Shown one piece after another: positions 4,663-29,586 of a stretch of DNA of 33,807 nt (the first letter of the stretch is position 1; each line of letters starts with the position of its first letter). Origin of the DNA: Escherichia phage vB_EcoM-12474III; the sequence record NC_049457.1. The stretch is one strand, 5' to 3'. A program made the translations under genes and the position numbers. The notes beneath the pieces were generated by a model, which did no database searches, had not been told where the DNA came from, and saw only the letters and a list, made by a program, of their open reading frames with translations.

Positions 4663-4803
4663 TATCCCGTCATCACGCCCTCACACGCTCACCACCGCAC
4701 AAAACACCCCGCAGAGACACCAATGCCCCGGCGCACAATCTAAACGCCGTCACGACGCGCTCAGACGCTGAAAAAATAAAATCCGCACCACCGCCAGCGC
4801 GCA

Positions 4804-4822
4804 GTGCTTTCCCGCCTCGCCC
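4804..4822. other. cos: cos cohesive-end site (19 nt)
   Basis: Minus strand reads GGGCGAGGCGGGAAAGCAC, near-identical to the P2 cohesive end as I recall it (GGCGAGGCGGGGAAAGCAC); it lies about 170 bp beyond the Q stop, as in P2. Confidence 0.7.
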
Positions 4823-5008
4823 GCCCGCTTCATGGGTCGGTTTTAATGCAGTTGCATAACATATTATTCATAGCACCACTGTGAGTTTATGGCTTCATTT
4901 TAGCGAGTTACTTACGCATGCATTTTAATGCACATAATTGCAGTTCTAGCCTACGTTTAACTCCAGTGTTAATCTTTGCATATCACCATATCTAATGAGA
5001 TTAGAGTT

Positions 5009-6127
5009 ATGACAGAAAGCCTTGATTACATCGACCTCAATAAACTTGAGCTTGATACAAAAAATCCACGTCTTCCTGAAGGTGTTGAACGTACCCCAGA
5101 AGCAATGCTAAATCATATAGCTCTAACAACCTCTATTGAAGACTTGATGAATGCAATCGCAGAAAATGGATTTTTTCCTGGCGAGCCTCTTATTGCGGTT
5201 AAAGAGGGAGATAAGTACACCGTTGTGGAAGGCAACCGTCGCTTAACGGCAGTTAAACTTATTCATAACCCATATGAGTGCGACAGACCCAGCTCCCGGA
5301 TGATAGAAATCGCCGAAAGCGCTAAAGATAAACTAGGTACACTAGAAAAATTACCAGTGATCGTTAGAGATACCAGAGCTGAAATTTTACCTTATTTGGG
5401 TTTCAGACATATCACTGGTGTCAAACAATGGGAACCTCTATCGAAGGCTCGTTATATCGAGCAACTTTTTGGGCTCACCTCCCCAAACTCACCGACTAAT
5501 GATCGATATCATCAGGTTGCTCGTGCAATTGGTAGCAGAAAAGATCATATCAAGAGAAATCTAGATGCTTTAGCCGTTTATAAAGTAATGGAGAGCAATA
5601 ACTTTTATGATATTGATGGATTAGATGAAGAATCGATCAAGTTTTCAATTTTATCTACAGCCTTAGCTGACGAGAAAATTGGATTGTTTGTTGGCGTCTC
5701 AGAAAAAGACGAATATGGTGATATTACATCCAATGATGTAATAATTCACCCACATCATATAAATAGAGAAAATACCAGAGAACTTACACTATGGCTTTAT
5801 AAAAAGGATGATTCCGGGAAAACAAAGGTTGGAGAGTCCCGAAATTTACGCCTATTATCTTCTGTTATTGATAACCCCAAGGCTTTAACGTCCTTTAGAA
5901 ACGGGGCTGACCTTAAGGTTGCGTATCAGTTAACTGAAGACTTAAAACAAGATTTCATGACGTTACTTTATAAAGCTGAATCTGCATTAATTGAAGCGGC
6001 TGGAATTGTTGCAACCATTGATTACAATCCTGAAGCATTGGAAGTTGCAAGACGCCTAAGTCAAAATGTCAAACTTATTGGTAATACAATTAAAGCCAAA
6101 AAGGTTTCTGACGATGAAGATTTTTAA
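5009..6127 (+). CDS. ParB/Srx-fold (ParB N-terminal nuclease-like) domain protein, cargo gene
   Basis: N-terminus carries ParB-type motifs DTKNPR (aa 16-21) and VVEGNRRLTAV (aa 72-82, the GxRR box); ATG at 5009 follows a GAG-rich RBS; AT-rich relative to the core; overlaps the start of the next gene. Confidence 0.6.
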   Translation: MTESLDYIDLNKLELDTKNPRLPEGVERTPEAMLNHIALTTSIEDLMNAIAENGFFPGEPLIAVKEGDKYTVVEGNRRLTAVKLIHNPYECDRPSSRMIEIAESAKDKLGTLEKLPVIVRDTRAEILPYLGFRHITGVKQWEPLSKARYIEQLFGLTSPNSPTNDRYHQVARAIGSRKDHIKRNLDALAVYKVMESNNFYDIDGLDEESIKFSILSTALADEKIGLFVGVSEKDEYGDITSNDVIIHPHHINRENTRELTLWLYKKDDSGKTKVGESRNLRLLSSVIDNPKALTSFRNGADLKVAYQLTEDLKQDFMTLLYKAESALIEAAGIVATIDYNPEALEVARRLSQNVKLIGNTIKAKKVSDDEDF

Positions 6128-7106
6128 AATCGGAGACATTCATCCTAGTGTTCCTCATCTTTTTGCAGACCTTGCAGAACTTGCTACGGTTATAAATTAT
6201 TCTGGTCGTTATGATCTACATAAAAATGACCTCATAACAATAAGAACTCAAAGTAACACAAGTGTGGATGATATTGATCAAGAATATCAAGAAGATGAAA
6301 ATGAAGGCTGCGATGCTGAACGCAATGACCGTTTAGAAAGACAAGTTGAAGATGTCTGGACGCAACTCGATTTTAGACAAAATTTTCTCAAGGATATTTA
6401 TCCATTTATTATTAATGGTGACTTTATTTCATTGAAAGAAAACCTCACTGAGATACAAAGAATATATATTTTCTTACTCGCATGCTCGAGGTTACGTTCT
6501 TTCACAAAGGCTAGGCAAGGAATAATACAGTTTTGGGCAAAAAATTTTGCTGTCGTAAGTAAATTTTGTGCAACAGCACTACTCCCAGCACACTCAACTG
6601 TACGAGTATTTGACGCAAACTCAGATGACAGGCGAAAATATTATGGTACTGATTTAAGAAAAGCCTTGAAAAGGCTAGGAAAAGACTTAGCTGTTCCTTA
6701 TATTAATGAGCAAGAGTGCGAAAGAGCTGATCCGAGAGGTGATGGTGGTTTTGATATAGTTGCAACTATAGAATTTGAAGATAAATTAAGTAGTAACTTT
6801 GCCTTTTTAGGTCAATGTGGAGCCCAAGAAAGAGATTGGCCCAAAAAAACACTTGAAGCCCACTCATTGAAACTACGAACATATTTTCAAGTGCATTTTG
6901 ACATACCAACTCTAATGTTTACCCCCGTATTCTATCGAAACTCAGATGGTCAATGGGTAGACAATAGCCCTTGCGCTGGAGTATTGATCATTGACAGAGC
7001 AAGGATATTACAGCTTTTAAAAAAGACAAACCATTGCCCTAAAATAGTTTCAGAACAATGGTTTCTTGATTTCGAACAAATTATCAATGATCTTAAGGTC
7101 GAATAA
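6114..7106 (+). CDS. Hypothetical protein with a possible PD-(D/E)xK nuclease motif; operon partner of the ParB-fold gene
   Basis: ATG at 6114 overlaps the upstream gene end (6127); protein contains RGDGGFDIVATIEFEDK (aa 208-224), reminiscent of the Mrr-type GDGGxD ... ExK catalytic signature; AT-rich. Confidence 0.5.
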   Translation: MKIFKIGDIHPSVPHLFADLAELATVINYSGRYDLHKNDLITIRTQSNTSVDDIDQEYQEDENEGCDAERNDRLERQVEDVWTQLDFRQNFLKDIYPFIINGDFISLKENLTEIQRIYIFLLACSRLRSFTKARQGIIQFWAKNFAVVSKFCATALLPAHSTVRVFDANSDDRRKYYGTDLRKALKRLGKDLAVPYINEQECERADPRGDGGFDIVATIEFEDKLSSNFAFLGQCGAQERDWPKKTLEAHSLKLRTYFQVHFDIPTLMFTPVFYRNSDGQWVDNSPCAGVLIIDRARILQLLKKTNHCPKIVSEQWFLDFEQIINDLKVE

Positions 7107-8045
7107 CTAATCCCAAATATCTGGAAGAGATTTAGCAACCGCCTCAAATAAAGGAGGCGGAACAGCATTGCCAACTACTGTATACTTCATATTAATAGAA
7201 GCCCGTTCAGTTTCTGGAAAAATTAGGTCTCCAAAACCCTGTAAAATAGCGGCCTCTCGATAACTAAACCTACGAGCTGGTGCATCCGAAGTAAATTGCC
7301 ACTTATCTGGACCCAATTTTTCTAATGTTGGACTTATTGGATGTAGAGGCATATGTCTAGGATTTGCAACAATTGTTTTAGATATCTGATCCCAATCTTG
7401 CCGACGGTTGCGCGATAGATAATACCAATGAAAATCGGCATCATAAAACTCACCAATAGGCCAAACAGGCATATGACCAATAGCATCACGAATTGTTGAA
7501 TATGGTTTCAAGCCATCACCATGTGTTGGTTTTGGAAATTTGTATGTAATACCATAGTCTTTTCGTATTCCTACGATAAAGATTCTCTTCCTATCTTGTG
7601 ATACGCCATAGTGGGACGCATTCAGAATTTGCGAGCTTACTGTATAACCTGCTTCTTCGAAAACTTTGAATTGATCCTTTAACAAATGTTCAAAGTTACG
7701 CCTTACCATTCCAGAAACATTCTCTACAATGAATGCTTTTGGCTTAATCTTTCTCAAAGCACGAGCAAACTCTAAATATAGAGTATTAATCTTTCTATCT
7801 GCCTTCCTTGCTCCACCCTGGCTAAATCCCTGGCAAGGATAGCATCCGATAAGCAATTCGGCAGAAGGGAACGATTGGAGTCCTGAAATATCGCCCAATA
7901 TGTAATCAGTTTCAGGATGGTTTTCTAAGTAAACGTCCCTTGCATAAGGCAAAATATCGTTTGCCATCAGCACATTGAACCCTGCTCTCAAAACTCCCGC
8001 ATCAGAACCACCACATCCAGAAAAAAGTGAAACTACAGTTGGCAT
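7107..8045 (-). CDS. DNA (cytosine-5)-methyltransferase
   Basis: Canonical C5-MTase motifs: FSGCGG (motif I, aa 8-13), PCQGFS (motif IV, aa 70-75), ENV (motif VI, aa 108-110), a QDRKR motif (VIII-like) and a C-terminal GNAVPPPL; convergent with, and abutting, the 6114..7106 gene. Confidence 0.88.
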   Translation of the reverse strand: MPTVVSLFSGCGGSDAGVLRAGFNVLMANDILPYARDVYLENHPETDYILGDISGLQSFPSAELLIGCYPCQGFSQGGARKADRKINTLYLEFARALRKIKPKAFIVENVSGMVRRNFEHLLKDQFKVFEEAGYTVSSQILNASHYGVSQDRKRIFIVGIRKDYGITYKFPKPTHGDGLKPYSTIRDAIGHMPVWPIGEFYDADFHWYYLSRNRRQDWDQISKTIVANPRHMPLHPISPTLEKLGPDKWQFTSDAPARRFSYREAAILQGFGDLIFPETERASINMKYTVVGNAVPPPLFEAVAKSLPDIWD

Positions 8046-8257
8046 CGCCCCTCCTAAAAACCGACCGCGTATTATAGCGAAACCACCCCTTGGGAAAAGC
8101 TAGATTTCGCCAAGTTTTGATATTCTCATGTTTTAGTAGTTGTGGCCATCTTTAACGAGAGAAAGATGAAATTGAGTTCTCATTAATTTTCAATAGGTTT
8201 AATTGTAAACACAGCAGGAATCAAAGCTAACACGTCGCTACGCTCATTGTTCAACCC

Positions 8258-8290
8258 CGCCATCTCTGAAAACAAGTTTCAGAAATGGCG
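8258..8290. promoter_or_regulatory. Imperfect palindrome upstream of the methyltransferase gene
   Basis: cgccatctctgaaa-acaag-tttcagaaatggcg, 13/14 complementary arms; sits in an AT-rich spacer about 210 bp upstream of the MTase start. Confidence 0.35.
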
Positions 8291-8296
8291 AGTATA

Positions 8297-8542
8297 CTAC
8301 ATCCTATGCGGTAGTTTCTTAGGCATGTTTGCTGGTCGAAATACCTCAATTTTCTGTCTACTGATATCGTTAAACCGTCTGTAATTATCCCGGACCATTT
8401 CGGCACACCCGACCAGCTCATCAGGCGTCAGATTTTCGTTGACCATAATCTGCTGTAGACGGTGGACAATGGCCATCAGCTTGATATTTTTAGTTTTATG
8501 CTGCGGTATCTCGCCTGGTATTCTGTGCATTATCCAAGCCAC
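8297..8542 (-). CDS. Small hypothetical protein (81 aa; start uncertain, possibly 8476)
   Basis: ORF only; occupies the position of the small post-A ORFs in P2-like phages. Confidence 0.4.
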   Translation of the reverse strand: MAWIMHRIPGEIPQHKTKNIKLMAIVHRLQQIMVNENLTPDELVGCAEMVRDNYRRFNDISRQKIEVFRPANMPKKLPHRM

Positions 8543-20464: not shown

Positions 20465-21655
20465 TTAATTGCTGTTAACCGAGGTGACCAGATTTGCCAG
20501 GTATTTATCGGTAATACGCTGGCGCAGGGTCAGGTTTTCAAGAGGAGGTACCGGTGTATAGTCGTAGTCGATATACAGTTTTCCGGCCTTGAGGGTTTCC
20601 GCATCGTTGGATTCTTCGCTGAACCAGCAGGTCGCATCCACGATATAGCCGTTTGTTTTCAGCTCACGGAATTTGGCATTGATGCCGTCAACGATGTCGC
20701 GAATCAGCGTTGCGGTGATGGGCTTGTCCACCGCCCACATGTGCGCCTCAGCCATCGTGTCGGCCAGCACCTGCGCGGTGCGGGTGTAGTTTTCAAAGAG
20801 GAACAGCTGGTCATCAGAGCAGGTACGGTTACCCCAGAAGCGGAAACCGTCGCGGCGAATCAGCGTAGTGACGCCTGACTCGTTAAGCAGGTCAGCATCG
20901 GTGCCGGACTCCTGCAAATCCCAGAATACAGATGCGCTGATGCCGGTAACACCGTTCACCCCGACATTGGACAGCGTTTTATGCCAGCCCTGCTCCTGGT
21001 CGATTTTGGCACGCAGCCCCAGTGCACGGGCGGTTGCATACGCGGTGGCGGTGATACTGGTGACCGTATCCCATGCGAGGAAATCCGGCCAGATGACCAT
21101 CAGCTCACGCTGGCTGAAATTCTGGCGGTAAGCTTTCACCTCGGAAATGGTTTTACAGCCCCATGCGCTGATATACCCGAAAGCGCGCAACTTCTGACAG
21201 ACTGATGCCAGTGCAACCGCCACCTCTTTGGTGTCCAGTCCCGGCACACCGAGAATACGCGGTTTAACACCGGTAACCGACTCCGCCGCCAGCAGGGCTT
21301 TCAGTCCGGTGTACTGACCGTTTTCGTCGGTGGTGCCGATGATATTGGAAACAGTCTGCGCAAGTTTCGTTTCTTCGTCGTCGCCGGTGCCGTCTTCCAC
21401 ACGCACGACTACGGTGACCGGTTTTGACTGGTCAGCGATGGCCTGCAACGACGCCGCCAGCGTGCCTTTTTTACCGGCCTTTGCAATTGCGCTCTGCACA
21501 TTGGTAATCAGCACCGGTTTATTGAGGGGGAAGATTTCCGCATCCGCATCGCTGGCCGTGCAGACCATGCCAACAATGGCGGTGGATACGGTGGAAATGA
21601 CGCGGGTGCCGTCGTTAATCTCCAGCACCTGCACGCCGTGATGATAGTCACTCAT
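20465..21655 (-). CDS. FI: Contractile tail sheath protein gpFI
   Basis: 396-aa ORF MSDYHHGVQVLEINDGTRVISTVSTAIVGMVCTASDADAE..., matching P2 FI. Confidence 0.92.
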   Translation of the reverse strand: MSDYHHGVQVLEINDGTRVISTVSTAIVGMVCTASDADAEIFPLNKPVLITNVQSAIAKAGKKGTLAASLQAIADQSKPVTVVVRVEDGTGDDEETKLAQTVSNIIGTTDENGQYTGLKALLAAESVTGVKPRILGVPGLDTKEVAVALASVCQKLRAFGYISAWGCKTISEVKAYRQNFSQRELMVIWPDFLAWDTVTSITATAYATARALGLRAKIDQEQGWHKTLSNVGVNGVTGISASVFWDLQESGTDADLLNESGVTTLIRRDGFRFWGNRTCSDDQLFLFENYTRTAQVLADTMAEAHMWAVDKPITATLIRDIVDGINAKFRELKTNGYIVDATCWFSEESNDAETLKAGKLYIDYDYTPVPPLENLTLRQRITDKYLANLVTSVNSN

Positions 21656-21749
21656 CCGTTTAACTCCGTGGTTAATGGGTGCAACTATTTTCTGTTGTGC
21701 AGAGCATAAGACGCTATTTGACCTGACTGGTCAGTGGATGAAACAACAG

Positions 21750-21779
21750 ATTAAAGAAAAGGCGGGCAACTCGCCCGCC
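21750..21779 (-). terminator. GC-rich hairpin with T-tract (minus-strand sense) between cargo gene 2 and FI
   Basis: Minus strand: ggcgggc-gagtt-gcccgcc followed by TTTTCTTTAAT. Confidence 0.55.
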
Positions 21780-21973
21780 CGTCCTGATTTGTACTCACTC
21801 ATTTTTCAACTGACAATTTACATAGCCCAAACGCTATCAAATCTGACAGCCTATTTTGAGCGAAAAGCAGACATTAGCATCCTTCTTATAGAAAAGGTAA
21901 ACCTGCTTCTATTTGTTAATCAATAGAGAGTAAGTCACAATGGCAGATACGAATATCGGCTGGAGAAATTAAA

Positions 21974-23056
21974 TTGAAACCAGAGCAAATGAAAAACAGG
22001 GAAGAATTAACTAGCTTTGCAACGAAACTTGCTACTCAAATCAAGATGCAAACCAGCAGCAATTTAAATGATCTTTCTACAGCCCAAGAGAGCTCGCTAT
22101 TGCCTCTAATCAATCATGCCTGGGGAGAGCAGTTTGAGGATATGAATAGGATATCCCAAAACTACCCTGGTCTCGACTATGTGCAACCGGGAAAGCGCTT
22201 AGGTTTGCAAATGACTGCCACTGCAAGAAAGGTTAAGTATCAGAAAACATTAGACAAACTTCGAAATAATGAGAAGTTAAAGGGTAAGTTTGACGAGATT
22301 TGGTTTTTCGTCCTCACGGCTGAACGCCTACCTGATAACGTACGTGAACACCCTGACGATTTTCAGTGCAAATATTTCACATTGTACGACCTAGTCGAAA
22401 AGGTAATGGGACAGACTTTAGAATTTCAGCGTGATTTTTTGACCCTTGCCCGGAAAGAATACTCGGATTATTTCTCTCCTGGGGACGTTGCTTTCAATCA
22501 GGGGTATTGTGTATCAGAAAACAAGCCGATCCCCTTTGACTTGAGTCTTTTCAACGCGTTAATTCATACTAATGAATGGTTTGATGATGTTGACGAAGGT
22601 GAGCAGATCGTATATGAATTTCTAGAACTTTTTAAAAATAGACTGCGTCAATGCACTTTATCTGCTAGAAATCTTTTAAGCAAAATTATCAGTGAGATAA
22701 ATATACCGAAGAGTACAAGCACGAAAATCGAGTTTCCTGAAAAGCAACTTTTCGGGCCACTAATGATTGACGATACAAACTATCAATCTTTTTCAAAAGA
22801 CCTTGATGATTTGTTCGAGATGAGTCTTATTGAACGATGGGACAATTATGTTGGAATGTACTATAAGGGTGATGATGCATATATCAAAAATGAACGTATG
22901 ATCAGCGTGTCATTTCCAAAGATTGAACCCGAAATGAATCTGTATGCGGCGTTATATATCTTTTATGAAAAAAATCATGATATTGCAAAACTTGTGAACG
23001 CAATTGAAAATAGTGATTTTTCTCTGCTCGCTGACAGCACTTGCCAAAATAATTAG
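21974..23056 (+). CDS. Hypothetical 360-aa protein, AT-rich cargo between FI and G (start TTG at 21974 with GGAG 8 nt upstream; alternative ATG at 21989)
   Basis: Long ORF on the strand opposite to all flanking late genes; visibly AT-rich codon usage; no transmembrane segments; no family recognised. Confidence 0.7.
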   Translation: MKPEQMKNREELTSFATKLATQIKMQTSSNLNDLSTAQESSLLPLINHAWGEQFEDMNRISQNYPGLDYVQPGKRLGLQMTATARKVKYQKTLDKLRNNEKLKGKFDEIWFFVLTAERLPDNVREHPDDFQCKYFTLYDLVEKVMGQTLEFQRDFLTLARKEYSDYFSPGDVAFNQGYCVSENKPIPFDLSLFNALIHTNEWFDDVDEGEQIVYEFLELFKNRLRQCTLSARNLLSKIISEINIPKSTSTKIEFPEKQLFGPLMIDDTNYQSFSKDLDDLFEMSLIERWDNYVGMYYKGDDAYIKNERMISVSFPKIEPEMNLYAALYIFYEKNHDIAKLVNAIENSDFSLLADSTCQNN

Positions 23057-23307
23057 TTAGTAAAAGGATGCATTTATGCTCTTAGTTACTCACTCTGTTG
23101 AATTTATTTTAAGTTATTAATATAGATATGGGCTTATATATCTTTAATAGAAATGACTAGCGTGAAAAATATGGGGCTAACTGGTCTGCCTCTCTTTTGA
23201 CCAAGACAATTTGCTGGAAAACTTCCGCTCTTGGCACAGAGCGGACTGTCAGATTAGACTTTACTCTGTGCCATAGATATGTAAGCTCCCACCAGAGCTC
23301 ATACAAC

Positions 23308-23835
23308 TTACTGCGGCATTTCCGGCCATTCAGGATTTGCAGGATCCACACGACTGACCAGAACACTGTAGCGTTCCCATGCTTCCAGTCGGCTGCGTTC
23401 CTCCTCTGTTGCCATATTCAGCCTGACAGCGCGCTCCAGCAGCAAAATCACGGATTCAGCTTCGGAAAGTAAAGTTGCCTTTTGTGATTCTGCCAGTTGA
23501 TGCTGTTCGTCTGCCGTATAAATCCGCTTAATCACGGCACCATCCTTAAACATCCATTTACCTGAGTCATCAGCACGTCGGTTGGCGGTAATATCAGGAA
23601 CCTCGACAACGCTAAAACCTTCAGGGTTAAGCGTTGAAGCATCTCTGGTGATGCCGACAATTATATTATTCTCGTCGTAAACAATCTTTATCGTGTCTTC
23701 CTGAAAATTACTTACTTCCTCATACCAGTTTTTTCCGTCTTCAGACCATAACCAGACAACATCAAAATTTTTTGTCAGTTGATATTGGGCAACAGTTTTG
23801 GGATTACCCGCAGTAATATTTTTTAAATGCTGCAT
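23308..23835 (-). CDS. G: Tail fiber assembly protein gpG
   Basis: 175-aa ORF, matching P2 gpG length and position downstream of H. Confidence 0.85.
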
Positions 23836-23838
23836 AAA

Positions 23839-25767
23839 TTACACCTGTGCGACGTTATACCATGTGCCATTAATGTATTTTTGTATTGGTCTGAATACTG
23901 CGGGGTCATCACCATCGACTTCACCGACAATACCAAGCCCTGTAATTACATGGCCTGATTTTTCATACATCACACCTTTTTGCATAGTCTGAACAACACG
24001 TGTGCCCAGGCGAATATCTCGTACATAGCGAGAATCCGATTCAGCTTTGGTATATGCACCAACATCTCCCGCAGAGGGTTTGCGGGTTGTGGTGTAAAAC
24101 TCTGACCAGTTAGCCTCAAATCCATAACCATCACGTGCTGAACGATAAAAAATACCGCCGTTCTTATAATTCACACGGAACTGTACGGCAGGGCAACTCC
24201 CCGCATTCATATTGAAGTGGAGGATTAATGTCGATGCACCGCTGATATCTGCATCATAAACACCGCTATTCCAGTTCCAGCCAACAGCTTTATCATTTGC
24301 AACCCTGCTTCCTGTTTGCCCTAAAGCAAATGCAGGCTGCTGGTTTTTCGTGTTGTAGTCTCGTCGCCAGCCGGGGGCATAAGCATCACCATGATTAATA
24401 TAAGTGAATTGAGCGTTAGTGGTGCCGCCTCCGGTAGAAGTGCTTGGTGTTGTTACACGGATGGTCATGGCACCTTTATTACCCATAACCTCAATAACGC
24501 AACCTGCAAGATGAATAGTTCCACAGCCAGTATCGGTAATAATTTTATTATTGCCGTATGACCATGAACATTTGCACATCCAGTACGGATGATTAAATGC
24601 ACCACGGGAATCCAGCCATTCAATAAACTGAGCGGTTGTCCAGTTTCCGGCTTCAGTGCTCAAAGCGCCGCTATAAGCACGACAGGCACCGATATTTTTC
24701 GTGAAGGTATCCTTTCCCGGAATATCCGCACCGTTCTGATCTTTCTGAAGACGTTTTTCAGCATTGTCATAGGCAGACTTCACTGCTTTTGGTGTTGCGG
24801 CCAGCGTTTCAGAATCACTGTTGGCGGCGCTACTGAGCTGAACAAGACCTTTCCGCGCCGTGGTGGCGTCCTGTGCAGTGTATTTCCCGTTAGCAAGGTC
24901 ATACGCGGCCTTTACCGCCTTTGGCGTTGCCGCAAGCGTTTCAGAATCGCTGTTGGTGACGCTACTGAGCTGGACAAGACCTTTTCGCGCTGTGGTGGCG
25001 TCCTGTGCGGTATATTTCCCGTTAGCAAGGTCATATGCTGCTTTTACCGCTTTTGGTGTTGCGGCAAGCGTTTCAGACGTGCTGTTGGTGGCACTACTGA
25101 GCTGGACAAGACCTTTTCGCGCTGTGGTAGCGTCCTGTGCGGTATATTTCCCGTTAGCCAGGTCATATGCGGCCTTAACCGCTTTCGGCGTTGCAGCCAG
25201 TGTTTCAGACGTGCTGTTGGTCGCACTGCTTAACTGAGTAAAACCTTTTGCGGTCAGCGAGGCGTCCGGGTGACGTCGTGACTGTTCATGTTCTGCAATT
25301 TTGTCATCAACGTAATCCTGCGTCGCCATCACCGTTGTGGTGTCAATGGTCAGCTCCACTGAGGTCACACTGCTGACGATGATGACCATGCGACAGGTCT
25401 GCGAACGCCCTGAGCCTTCGGCAAGAGCTGGCTTATAACTTTCGGCCATGTTCGCCACGGCAATTAATGTTCCCGCATCATCGTACAGGCCAAGCTCACG
25501 CATCCAGAAACCGCCCACCTCCGGCGGAATAACCAGCTCTGCGATAATATAATTACTGTTTCGTTTGTCCTGGCTGATTTTGTTCAGCGCATGTCGCCAG
25601 ACTTCATGGATAAGCCCGGTCTGTCCGGCATCCGGGACAGGCAATTTACCACCGCCATCCCCGACGGCCATCGTGGTAATGTTGACCTTCCGCCCTCCCG
25701 GCGCGGTTGCCGCTGCCAGCTTTGCTGCACCGGCAGTGGTGATAACGGTTCTGAATTTTGTGCTCAT
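23839..25767 (-). CDS. H: Tail fiber protein gpH
   Basis: 642-aa ORF; N-terminus MSTKFRTVITTAGAAKLAAATAPGGRKVNITTMAVGDGGG... is P2 H-like; contains internal 44-aa tandem repeats. Confidence 0.9.
   Translation of the reverse strand: MSTKFRTVITTAGAAKLAAATAPGGRKVNITTMAVGDGGGKLPVPDAGQTGLIHEVWRHALNKISQDKRNSNYIIAELVIPPEVGGFWMRELGLYDDAGTLIAVANMAESYKPALAEGSGRSQTCRMVIIVSSVTSVELTIDTTTVMATQDYVDDKIAEHEQSRRHPDASLTAKGFTQLSSATNSTSETLAATPKAVKAAYDLANGKYTAQDATTARKGLVQLSSATNSTSETLAATPKAVKAAYDLANGKYTAQDATTARKGLVQLSSVTNSDSETLAATPKAVKAAYDLANGKYTAQDATTARKGLVQLSSAANSDSETLAATPKAVKSAYDNAEKRLQKDQNGADIPGKDTFTKNIGACRAYSGALSTEAGNWTTAQFIEWLDSRGAFNHPYWMCKCSWSYGNNKIITDTGCGTIHLAGCVIEVMGNKGAMTIRVTTPSTSTGGGTTNAQFTYINHGDAYAPGWRRDYNTKNQQPAFALGQTGSRVANDKAVGWNWNSGVYDADISGASTLILHFNMNAGSCPAVQFRVNYKNGGIFYRSARDGYGFEANWSEFYTTTRKPSAGDVGAYTKAESDSRYVRDIRLGTRVVQTMQKGVMYEKSGHVITGLGIVGEVDGDDPAVFRPIQKYINGTWYNVAQV
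24760..25250. repeat. Tandem 132-bp coding repeat (about 3.7 copies) inside tail fiber gene H
   Basis: gttagcaagg / gttagccagg landmarks recur at 24889, 25021 and 25153 (period 132); the protein repeats KGLVQLSSATNSTSETLAATPKAVKAAYDLANGKYTAQDATTAR. Confidence 0.9.
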
Positions 25768-27213: not shown

Positions 27214-27561
27214 TCAACTCACAGGGATGGTTAACGAAAGTGGCTGGCCGGTGTCGTTGTGCTGGCCGGTCAACGTGACCGTCATTCGCCCGTCAAAGCT
27301 GCGCGCCGTGGTGACGGATGACAGGGTGACGCGGGGTTCCCATTTCAGCACTGCCATGTAACAGGCGACCTTAATCTGCAACTCAAGCGCCGGGGTCTGC
27401 GGCTGGTCAATCATTGATGCCAGCAACGAGCCGTAATCACGACGCATCACCCGTGAGCCGACCGGCGTGCGCAGGATATCGCCGATACTCTGGCTGATAT
27501 GCTCAAGGTCAGTGACAGTCAGGCCATTACTGCGATTCATTCCGAGATAACGCGCTGTCAT
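27214..27561 (-). CDS. W: Baseplate protein gpW
   Basis: 115-aa ORF, P2 gpW length; ATGA overlap with V. Confidence 0.88.
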   Translation of the reverse strand: MTARYLGMNRSNGLTVTDLEHISQSIGDILRTPVGSRVMRRDYGSLLASMIDQPQTPALELQIKVACYMAVLKWEPRVTLSSVTTARSFDGRMTVTLTGQHNDTGQPLSLTIPVS

Positions 27562-28193
27562 AAAGGACTCCCGGTTGTGCCGCCGCTGTCGCCGGGGTGT
27601 TTGTGGGTATGCAGTACCTTACCGTTTGATGAGAGTTCACCGCCGGTGTGTTCAATGTTGCCGCGCATCGTCCCGCCCTTCTGTACTTCCAGCGTGCCGG
27701 TAATCAGCCTGTTGGTGCAGACCACCTCCGGTGTGTCCAGGGTGACGCGGGTTGATGCTTTCACCATGACCACCGGCACCGTGGCAGTAACAGAATCAGA
27801 AGCCGTCACGCTGGCCGTTTTAATTCCGCTTGCCGTGAGTGCACTGGTTTCGGGTTCATATTCAATCACCGCCCCGTCAGGGAAACGGATATGCAGGGCA
27901 TCCGCCGACGCAGACGGCGCGGGGTTATCGCCGGAATAAATCCCCGGCAGAACGAACGCCGTGTCGAGTTCACCGCCCACGGCCAGAATCAGCACCTGCT
28001 CCCCCACGGAAGGTGCCCACCATGTGCGCGAACGACCGGCACGATGGGTCAGCCACTGAAGCCAGTCAGTGCACATGCCGCCGGTCTGCACACGGCAGCG
28101 ACCGGCGTTAAGGTCGGTTTCGACGATAATGCCGGTGCGAATCATGTTGCGCAGTGCGCGCGCGAGTTCCTGAATATTTGCGAGAGTGTTCAT
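27558..28193 (-). CDS. V: Baseplate spike protein gpV
   Basis: MNTLANIQELARALRNMIRTGIIVETDLNAGRCRVQTGG... from the ATG at 28193; 211 aa, as in P2 gpV. Confidence 0.9.
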   Translation of the reverse strand: MNTLANIQELARALRNMIRTGIIVETDLNAGRCRVQTGGMCTDWLQWLTHRAGRSRTWWAPSVGEQVLILAVGGELDTAFVLPGIYSGDNPAPSASADALHIRFPDGAVIEYEPETSALTASGIKTASVTASDSVTATVPVVMVKASTRVTLDTPEVVCTNRLITGTLEVQKGGTMRGNIEHTGGELSSNGKVLHTHKHPGDSGGTTGSPL

Positions 28194-28276
28194 GCATGTG
28201 AGATTGCACAATATATAAAAGTTATGCTATCTGGATTCATTTGTAGAACTACCAGACAACATTCAAGGAGAGCGTA

Positions 28277-29062
28277 ATGGTCAGCTATAATGTGACTAAT
28301 GTGTGGGGGCTAATCGTTTTTTTCCTTTGTAGCTTTGCAGTATTAGCATTTTTTAGCTTTGGTAAAAGTAACCTTATGAGGCTTATTGCACATTATTTCA
28401 ATTTTGGATATTCAGACAAAAAATTAAAAAGACTTGACCGCGAGTGGCGCGACATTCAACTATTTAAAATAATTAACGGAATCAATGTATCAGGCATTGA
28501 AAATGTGAGAATGATACAGCAGGGACTGATTGATGGAAAACTAAAAACATCGTATTTTTTCCTTACTCGCATCTGGGGTGACATAACAAAACCACCACAC
28601 ATAATTAAAACAATAATTGTAATTCTGGCCAGTATTTTTTACATTCTCCTCGCATGTTATATACACAACAAACAATCCGCTATAGTAAGAGATGCCATAG
28701 GCATACCATATAAAAATATGATGTACTATGTTTATAGTGACAAAGTTCTTTTATCCTTCAACAATAAAACAGTTGAATTCAATAAAACTTATAGCCTTGC
28801 CGATTGCAAGAGGCTACGAAACGTATTTATAAAAGACACACTTCCTGAGATCGCCTGCAATAAGCTCTTACAGCTAAACGAGGAGGACTCCGAATGGTTA
28901 AGTCAGGAGATTAAAGATAATAACAGCCAAAAAAAAGCATTATTAATAATATCCCTCATCTATTTCATTTCAGGTCTGGTTATATTCCTGTCATATACAA
29001 AATTCCTTTACGCCAATAAGAAGGTTGTAGAATACAAAGCATCAAATAAAAATCACTCATAA
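28277..29062 (+). CDS. Predicted membrane protein (261 aa), AT-rich cargo between V and S
   Basis: ATG at 28277 with an AGGAG RBS 6 nt upstream; three hydrophobic helix-like segments (aa about 10-30, 115-135, 225-245); strongly AT-rich; strand opposite to the flanking late genes. Confidence 0.75.
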   Translation: MVSYNVTNVWGLIVFFLCSFAVLAFFSFGKSNLMRLIAHYFNFGYSDKKLKRLDREWRDIQLFKIINGINVSGIENVRMIQQGLIDGKLKTSYFFLTRIWGDITKPPHIIKTIIVILASIFYILLACYIHNKQSAIVRDAIGIPYKNMMYYVYSDKVLLSFNNKTVEFNKTYSLADCKRLRNVFIKDTLPEIACNKLLQLNEEDSEWLSQEIKDNNSQKKALLIISLIYFISGLVIFLSYTKFLYANKKVVEYKASNKNHS

Positions 29063-29068
29063 ACCTCT

Positions 29069-29103
29069 AAACATTGAGCGACCAGCATGGCCGCTCAATG
29101 TTT
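29069..29103. terminator. Perfect 12-bp-stem hairpin between the convergent cargo gene and S (possible bidirectional terminator)
   Basis: aaacattgagcg-(11 nt loop)-cgctcaatgttt; located between the stop of 28277..29062 (+) and the stop of S (-). Confidence 0.5.
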
Positions 29104-29133
29104 AATTGCGCATCAGCCTCTGCCTGGATAAAA

Positions 29134-29586
29134 CTAACGCTCAAGGTGAGCCAGGATAATCTCTTCAATCATCTGCACATCCTCACCGGTAAAGCCGAGC
29201 AGAGGACGCGCCGGATAATCAATTTTCTTACCGTTTTTCCGGGTTTCTTCCGACAGACCGAACTGATGCACACTGGCGATTTTCGGCGACTTCCCGCCGT
29301 AAAATTCCATTGATGCCTGTTCCGGGCTGGCGCGGATATGCAAAAAACGACTGGTGATAAGTTTCGCAAACATTTTTCGCTTAACACGACCGGTCTTTTT
29401 TCTGGCGCTCTGCTGCTGGCGTGGCGCGTAGGGTGTGCCGTCCGGGGCTTTCTGTGCCATCACCCGACGCTGCTGACTCTGACGCAGACGTTTCGCCAGT
29501 TCGGCGCTCAGTCGCCGACGCCCTGACGGTGACAGCGATTCAATAAGTCCCGCCAGCCGGTCTTCAAAACGCTTAAACTCATTCAT
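29134..29586 (-). CDS. S: Tail completion protein gpS
   Basis: 150-aa ORF, P2 gpS length and position. Confidence 0.88.
   Translation of the reverse strand: MNEFKRFEDRLAGLIESLSPSGRRRLSAELAKRLRQSQQRRVMAQKAPDGTPYAPRQQQSARKKTGRVKRKMFAKLITSRFLHIRASPEQASMEFYGGKSPKIASVHQFGLSEETRKNGKKIDYPARPLLGFTGEDVQMIEEIILAHLER

Follow-up and report, generated by a model that had tools for sequence, protein, structure and literature searches.

What is the role of the AT-rich gene that stands, against the direction of its neighbours, between the late genes V and S of Escherichia phage vB_EcoM-12474III? The sequence analysed here is a stretch of 33,807 nucleotides of this phage (NC_049457.1; one strand, 5' to 3'; hereafter the window), and the gene corresponds to orf30 of bacteriophage P2. 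P2 has three other AT-rich non-essential genes, old, tin and fun. All three are phage-exclusion genes, and each gave rise to a line of work on phage defence; of the four, orf30 alone lacks a phenotype. The main new result of the analysis is that even distant relatives of orf30 are strictly placed at the junction of V and S (hereafter V|S). A host-protective, probably anti-phage, role at the membrane is a reasonable hypothesis for the gene.

The gene between V and S is orf30 of P2

Segment 28194-29133 is the exact gap between the two late genes: the start codon of V is at 28193 and the stop codon of S at 29134. It contains an ORF at 28277-29062 (+ strand) that starts with ATG and encodes 261 residues followed by a stop. 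Its GC content is 0.336 (0.355 at third codon positions), versus 0.60 for gene V, 0.54 for gene S and 0.51 for the whole window, and the lowest-GC 600-nt bin of the window, 28201-28800 (GC 0.332), falls on it. A Shine-Dalgarno sequence, AAGGAG, is read at 28265-28270 (+ strand), 6 nt 5' of the ATG; homologues are likewise preceded by AAGGAG-type or AAAGGA-type sites. The strand is opposite to that of both adjoining late operons, and the gene lies between the terminator of the O operon and the promoter of the V operon. A preliminary description, made from the letters alone, had pointed to an AT-rich gene for a 261-residue protein, with a strong ribosome-binding site, on the opposite strand at an operon boundary; the GC profile and the inspection of the site agree with it on each of these points.

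The 2.2 kb around the ORF are 100% identical to phages vB_EcoM-12474II, IV and V and 97.3% identical to P2, the record of which names the ORF "orf30, Orf30, nonessential" (AAD03281.1). The protein of the window shares 95.4% of its amino acids with P2 Orf30 over all 261 residues (tblastn, AF063097), and it matches PHROG 2407 with an E-value of 1e-147, residues 1-261 being aligned to profile positions 1-261. From these sequence comparisons, it is essentially certain that the ORF of the window is P2 orf30. Close relatives of Orf30 were found in 19 isolated phages, all of P2 type; no match to orf30 was found in plasmids by tblastn.

Distant relatives keep to the V|S slot

All family members that can be placed in phage DNA occupy the V|S slot, where they diverge from V and converge on S. 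These are loci of Gibbsiella (L007 in the numbering of this analysis) and Serratia nevei (L008), Yersinia-type contigs of IMG/VR (L009-L020) and metagenomic or ENA sequences (L035-L037). The distant relatives residing at V|S are only about 20% identical to Orf30. Since proteins so remote share one slot, orf30 appears as a long-term resident of the slot, often lost or replaced, and not as a one-off insertion. The "cargo insertion" of the preliminary description is right insofar as the gene is accessory, but too simple as a history of the slot.

In the 12 IMG/VR loci, the GC content of the gene is 0.34-0.36 and that of the surrounding phage DNA 0.50-0.59. The AT-richness of the family persists down to about 20% identity, whatever the surrounding GC; it may reflect repeated acquisition or selection for AT-richness.

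Some V|S slots hold extra genes: (i) in Gibbsiella (L007, 8877-10214), a gene for a 445-residue DUF4062 protein; (ii) in L018 (2965-3899), two ORFs, one of them encoding a DUF7480 protein; (iii) in L035 (5875-6377), two small ORFs. None of these extra genes matched a PADLOC model.

Other members of the family are found where the phage has decayed. In Serratia rubidaea and S. odorifera (L021-L023), V, S, R and D are reduced to fragments, but the family gene is intact. In laboratory Escherichia coli B (strain B-LamR, NZ_CP115179; L038, 4778-6549), a defective P2-like prophage still contains orf30 in intact form (WP_000490543.1); there it lies next to a shortened S that is joined to a shortened portal gene, and just past these genes is an "ABC-three component system". 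In Enterobacter (L024, L025, L032-L034) a lone family gene occupies one fixed chromosomal locus, seen in more than 100 contigs, between a cluster comprising an extracytoplasmic function (ECF) sigma factor and DsbD-DsbC and a chemoreceptor/sucrose operon; no phage genes were found within 5-6 kb. The gene outlives the phage and so bears the signature of a gene serving the lysogen. From the intact copies in decayed P2 remnants and the chromosomal copy of Enterobacter, we infer that the gene serves the host and not the lytic cycle.

V|S as a variable site in P2-like phages

The preliminary description did not know this junction as a recognised cargo site; this is contradicted by the literature, in which V|S is a variable insertion site (PMC2771037, PMC3091744, PMC6823313, PMC13366799). 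In published work orf30 is described as an insertion between S and V that is not in Wphi and L-413C, and other ORFs replace it in phiCTX, R18C and Burkholderia P2-like phages. The orf30 locus, TO and Z are the three common sites of non-P2 genes in P2-like phages, and the genes at these sites are predicted to be horizontally acquired (PMC3091744). Phage R18C has a 741-bp ORF at the orf30 site (PMC6823313) and Burkholderia phage AB4 a DNA methylase (PMC13366799). Both orf30 and the variable nature of its site were thus published years ago: the finding holds but is not new. V|S is the least studied of the three sites, and the defence-hotspot papers on P2-like phages centre on the gpA-portal and Z/fun hotspots.

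The slot was surveyed in 5426 complete E. coli genomes, and an evenly spaced sample of 60 V..S hits was inspected. A V..S region is present in 1579 genomes, of which 458 have orf30. In L-413C, which lacks orf30, V and S are 66 bp apart; most of the sampled copies without orf30 span exactly 1327 bp, i.e., the empty state of L-413C, and the junction appears to be empty in about 60% of E. coli P2-like prophages. Three alternative genes were found in the slot: (i) one for a 247-residue soluble protein (18 genomes); (ii) one for a 347-residue protein with two transmembrane (TM) segments (60 genomes); (iii) one of the R18C type, for a 246-residue protein with an HNH-like CxxC...H...CxxC pattern, on the late-gene strand (77 genomes). 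All three are AT-rich (GC 0.33-0.36), and their location at V|S was confirmed for the three index copies. Neither these genes nor those sharing the slot elsewhere matched PADLOC models, beyond one negligible match at E = 0.04. The junction is thus not invariant among related prophages.

Isolated viable phages such as L-413C lack orf30, and the gene is dispensable for phage growth. Three of the traits by which a moron is recognised are found here: two genes adjacent in relatives are split, the GC content deviates from that of the flanks, and a terminator is present, though shared with the O operon.

The placement of the family could be read in another way, i.e., as that of an accessory of the lytic cycle or of infection, useful and non-essential, which would help tail or baseplate assembly, set the timing of lysis or protect the infected cell. 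A family locked to V|S beside a late promoter in several genera behaves as core or semi-core genes do, and P2 has non-essential membrane genes, lysA and lysB, that modulate lysis. Such a role is nevertheless quite improbable: orf30 is oriented against both late operons, its start is about 28 nt from the centre of the activator site, which is too close for the usual Ogr geometry, the junction so often appears empty in prophages and is empty in viable isolates, and the gene is kept where the phage is dead.

Family, conservation and selection

A single-protein, word-indexed search with Orf30 gave five clusters. A profile search of 1.84 billion representatives gave 44 proteins, about 23 of them of full length (250-271 residues), and later searches brought in members from Yersinia, Serratia, Gibbsiella, Buttiauxella and Enterobacter. 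In the resulting alignment of 52 sequences, members are 14-36% identical to Orf30. An independent tblastn comparison of a Yersinia member with P2 gave 24-26% identity over 91% of the length (E 1e-7). Exactly three hydrophobic regions are present at aligned positions in 47 of the 52 members, and both cysteines of the second loop (C177 and C194) in 49. The first loop contains a family motif, D-x-Q-L-F-R-x-x-N-G-I-N-V-(x4)-D-A-x-x-I-(x5)-G-x-L. The mean identity to distant members is 28% for loop 1, 15% for loop 2 and 10-18% for the TM helices.

The ratio of nonsynonymous to synonymous substitution rates (dN/dS) was calculated for five E. coli alleles of orf30, a small sample to which all the following values apply. 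It ranges from 0.25 to 0.52, below 1 in all pairs, and is higher than for gene V (0.08-0.29) and for most pairs of gene S (0-0.38). The loops are the most constrained parts of the protein, with a dN/dS of about 0.3. As judged from these sequence comparisons, orf30 is a real coding gene under purifying selection.

On the opposite reading, the ORF would be non-functional or in decay, a passenger of AT-rich foreign DNA; the probability of this is negligible. Such a reading could invoke two cases found among 18 sampled E. coli copies, namely an allele annotated as frameshifted (L028, 778-1562) and an IS2 in the slot of H35 (NZ_CP173472), along with the failure to detect a promoter. These cases imply that orf30 is occasionally inactivated. 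Against this reading stand the dN/dS values, the strong ribosome-binding site, the copies that are intact while their neighbours decay and the 52 full-length homologues, in which motifs, topology and cysteines are conserved.

Scans of the window protein against Pfam and NCBIfam gave no match. Weak matches to DUF6216 (PF19723) were obtained for 18 of the 52 members (best E 8.7e-7). For the three matches examined singly, the alignment stays in register for about 180-200 residues and the scores are 16.9-18.1 bits, short of the 27.3-bit gathering cut-off; the window protein itself has no match to DUF6216 at E up to 1. These profile matches suggest that the Orf30 family is remotely related to DUF6216, the proteins of which are about 270 residues long, i.e., near the lengths of the Orf30 family. 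DUF6216 has no known function, and the sole paper found to name it is unrelated.

Predicted topology and structure of Orf30

The Kyte-Doolittle profile of Orf30 (19-residue averaging) has peaks of 2.4-2.6 at residues 9-27, 109-127 and 221-239, which are the three hydrophobic segments seen in the preliminary description. The net charges are 0 for the N-terminal tail, +7 for loop 1, +1 for loop 2 and +4 for the C-terminal tail. This bias leads, by the positive-inside rule, to a topology in which the N-terminus is outside, loop 1 cytoplasmic, loop 2 periplasmic and the C-terminus inside. The predicted layout is thus that of an inner-membrane protein with a cytoplasmic loop at 29-107 and a periplasmic loop at 131-219, the latter carrying C177 and C194. 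The conservation of a cysteine pair in the predicted periplasmic loop fits this topology.

The AlphaFold2 model (38 sequences) has a mean predicted local distance difference test score (pLDDT) of 82.9 and a predicted template modelling score (pTM) of 0.65. In this model the TM helices are long, loop 1 is helical, and loop 2 is made of a four-stranded sheet and helices. The predicted protein thus combines a conserved, helical loop of about 80 residues and a more variable, alpha/beta loop of about 90 residues. A claudin/TARP-type fold was considered and rejected: such chains were the top Foldseek matches in PDB, with a best E-value of 0.1, but their TM-scores were only 0.13-0.20. The best E-value of the fold search in BFVD was 0.29.

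A periplasmic domain with a conserved cysteine pair would also suit a lysogenic conversion unrelated to phages, i.e., a role in envelope physiology such as stress tolerance, signalling, colonisation or resistance to colicins or tailocins. The survival of the intact gene after prophage decay, the fixed locus of Enterobacter beside an ECF sigma factor and a Dsb cluster and the lack of any defence-family signal point the same way; moreover, P2-like hotspots also hold non-defence cargo, e.g., cytolethal distending toxin. On the other hand, no positive evidence favours any particular activity of this kind, and the link to one slot and one lineage, together with a dN/dS above that of the flanks, is more typical of conflict genes. 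We regard this explanation as unlikely, yet it is the most probable of the alternatives to an anti-phage role that are specified here.

Terminator and promoter region

The hairpin reported 3' of the gene in the preliminary description lies at 29068-29104. Its stem is made of 13 perfect pairs and, past one mismatch, 3 more, with a free energy of -21.3 kcal/mol for the + strand RNA and -26.8 kcal/mol for the - strand RNA, corresponding to z-scores of -5.7 and -5.9 (about -5.8); none of 200 shuffled sequences folds equally well. The P2 record annotates it as the "putative rho-independent terminator for O operon", S being the last gene of that operon. It is also directly 3' of the orf30 stop and is thus common to orf30 and the O operon, for which it may act as an intrinsic terminator in both directions. 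A clear U tract is lacking, and since there is no run of T after the stem, a simple terminator scan does not report it.

The 83-bp region between V and orf30 (28194-28276) is identical between the window and P2. The P2 record annotates in this gap the "transcription start site for V operon" and an "activator binding site; activation of pV promoter"; the gap holds the late promoter of the V operon and, at about 28235-28262, the binding site of its activator (Ogr). An ACAAC motif, which in P2 marks the far end of the annotated activator site, lies about 70 nt from the ATG of V in the window and in L007, L008, L009, L013 and L015. The orf30-type gene starts 17 nt past ACAAC in P2 and about 50 nt (up to 55) past it in the other loci. 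With this constant spacing, any promoter of orf30 must overlap the activator site of the V promoter. Weak promoter candidates can be picked by eye 5' of orf30, e.g., TTCATG-17-TATATA. It is a matter of speculation that orf30 and V are expressed reciprocally, orf30 being on in the lysogen and off once Ogr activates V. A P2-type module carrying its own V promoter was also considered, and rejected in view of the same 70-nt layout up to ACAAC in all loci.

A possible role in the exclusion of phages

The mechanism that we favour is as follows. The prophage would express the gene, in the direction opposed to that of the late operons, and Orf30 would insert into the inner membrane and shield the lysogen from other phages. 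It would block the entry of their genomes at the inner membrane or in the periplasm, in the manner of SieA of phage P22. The variable periplasmic domain would meet the incoming injection machinery, and the conserved cytoplasmic loop would provide a common anchoring or effector contact. An entry block is preferred because single-gene prophage membrane proteins with a periplasmic domain typically act so, and because of the parallel with SieA; it is a tentative proposal of rather low probability. The exclusion functions of old, tin and fun also speak for it. For an anti-phage function of whatever kind the chances come close to even, without reaching it. With a chance only slightly lower than that, Orf30 may be the founder of an unrecognised family of single-protein, three-TM exclusion proteins of the inner membrane, i.e., a distant branch of DUF6216 that is tied to V|S across Enterobacterales and domesticated in Enterobacter. 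If this is true, orf30 would be the fourth anti-phage gene of P2 beside old, tin and fun, and a new family of membrane proteins would join the exclusion proteins.

Several observations weigh against an exclusion role. As regards expression, the promoter scan gave no convincing sigma-70 promoter 5' of orf30, and the ATG is 14 nt from the pV activator site, so that expression in the lysogen is an assumption. As regards relatives, the window protein has 0 matches in PADLOC-DB v2 at E up to 1, and no PADLOC match recurs among the 52 members; the comparison with the family profile gave hhalign probabilities of 0.4% for P22 SieA, 0.3% for lambda RexB and 0.1% for lambda SieB; no similar structure was found in PDB or BFVD by Foldseek or by a profile search of PDB sequences. 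As regards phenotype, the literature search found no experiment or paper that ties orf30 to one, and V|S is not listed as a defence hotspot in recent surveys of P2-like hotspots. To our knowledge, the classical work gave exclusion phenotypes for old, tin and fun and none for orf30. Lastly, the DNA of P2 can enter P2 lysogens, since double lysogens form; self-exclusion is therefore unlikely and P2 itself is probably not the target.

The protection could also come from the death of the infected cell. In this case Orf30 would be an abortive-infection effector of the membrane, idle until an infection cue makes it oligomerise or open, and it would then depolarise and kill the cell in the manner of SLATT proteins or RexB. 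Orf30 is indeed a hydrophobic, multi-TM product of a prophage accessory gene. The Enterobacter homologue P0072 bears a SLATT (SMODS and SLOG-associating 2TM effector) domain name in UniRef; this identity was not reproduced and is rejected, as no SLATT model matched the 52 members (Pfam) or the 11 members scanned with NCBIfam. The PADLOC model RTasSLATT matched 1 of the 52 members at E = 0.0025, which is near chance. The three TM helices (not two), their lack of a polar lining and the low value obtained for RexB are further points against such an effector. No sensor partner travels with the gene, which is alone in Enterobacter and in most V|S slots, and neither a nucleotide-signalling nor a reverse-transcriptase partner gene was found in any locus examined. 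Abortive infection is thus improbable, somewhat more so than the lysogenic conversion discussed above but less so than a lytic accessory. The remaining probability goes to something else.

Other features of the window

The left flank of the segment is gene V (27558-28193, - strand), encoding the baseplate spike (Pfam Phage_base_V and Phage_spike; P2 annotation, 97% DNA identity). In the mechanical ORF list V begins at a TTG at 28211, which would overlap the start of the segment; the annotated ATG at 28193 is conserved among P2-type copies. The right flank is gene S (29134-29586, - strand), for tail completion (Pfam Phage_tail_S, E 1e-43; P2 annotation). No RNA family was found by Rfam anywhere in the window.

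The window has two other AT-rich islands. The first (4800-8400, GC 0.35-0.43) is at the position of the old/tin (TO) region of P2. Its cargo is not old/tin and has a full match only to three vB_EcoM-12474 phages; a part of it matches a region of Wphi with the mth DNA methyltransferase. The second (21600-24000, GC 0.38-0.43) is in the Z/fun slot, at the end of the tail-fibre genes, and differs from P2 and L-413C, which match about half of the query at about 92% identity.

Comparison with known systems

The closest system is P2 itself. The position and orientation of orf30 and the flanking promoter and terminator all match those of P2. The differences are 12 amino-acid changes, all beyond residue 100, and the other genes that the vB_EcoM-12474-type phage carries in its other two AT-rich islands.

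The old/tin and fun(Z) genes resemble orf30 in being AT-rich, non-essential, presumably acquired horizontally, located between conserved genes and polymorphic by presence/absence and by replacement. They differ from it in that their anti-phage activity is demonstrated, whereas none is for orf30. The gpA-portal (old/tin) hotspot also differs in its diversity: hundreds of arrangements are reported there, whereas V|S in E. coli holds orf30, one of three single genes or nothing.

SLATT proteins are, like Orf30, membrane-embedded and helical, and belong to conflict-type loci, but they have two TM helices and Orf30 has three.

P22 SieA is a prophage-encoded, three-TM protein of the inner membrane that blocks DNA injection (PMC10883804). 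It differs from Orf30 in its length (162-164 residues, versus 261 residues with two large loops for Orf30), in the absence of a detectable sequence relationship and in its phenotype, no exclusion being known for Orf30. The two are nevertheless alike in that: (i) both are single prophage genes for predicted three-TM inner-membrane proteins; (ii) the best-conserved part is predicted to be cytoplasmic in both, and both families diverge to less than 30% identity; (iii) sieA and orf30 are each convergent to, or opposite, an adjacent operon of virion genes.

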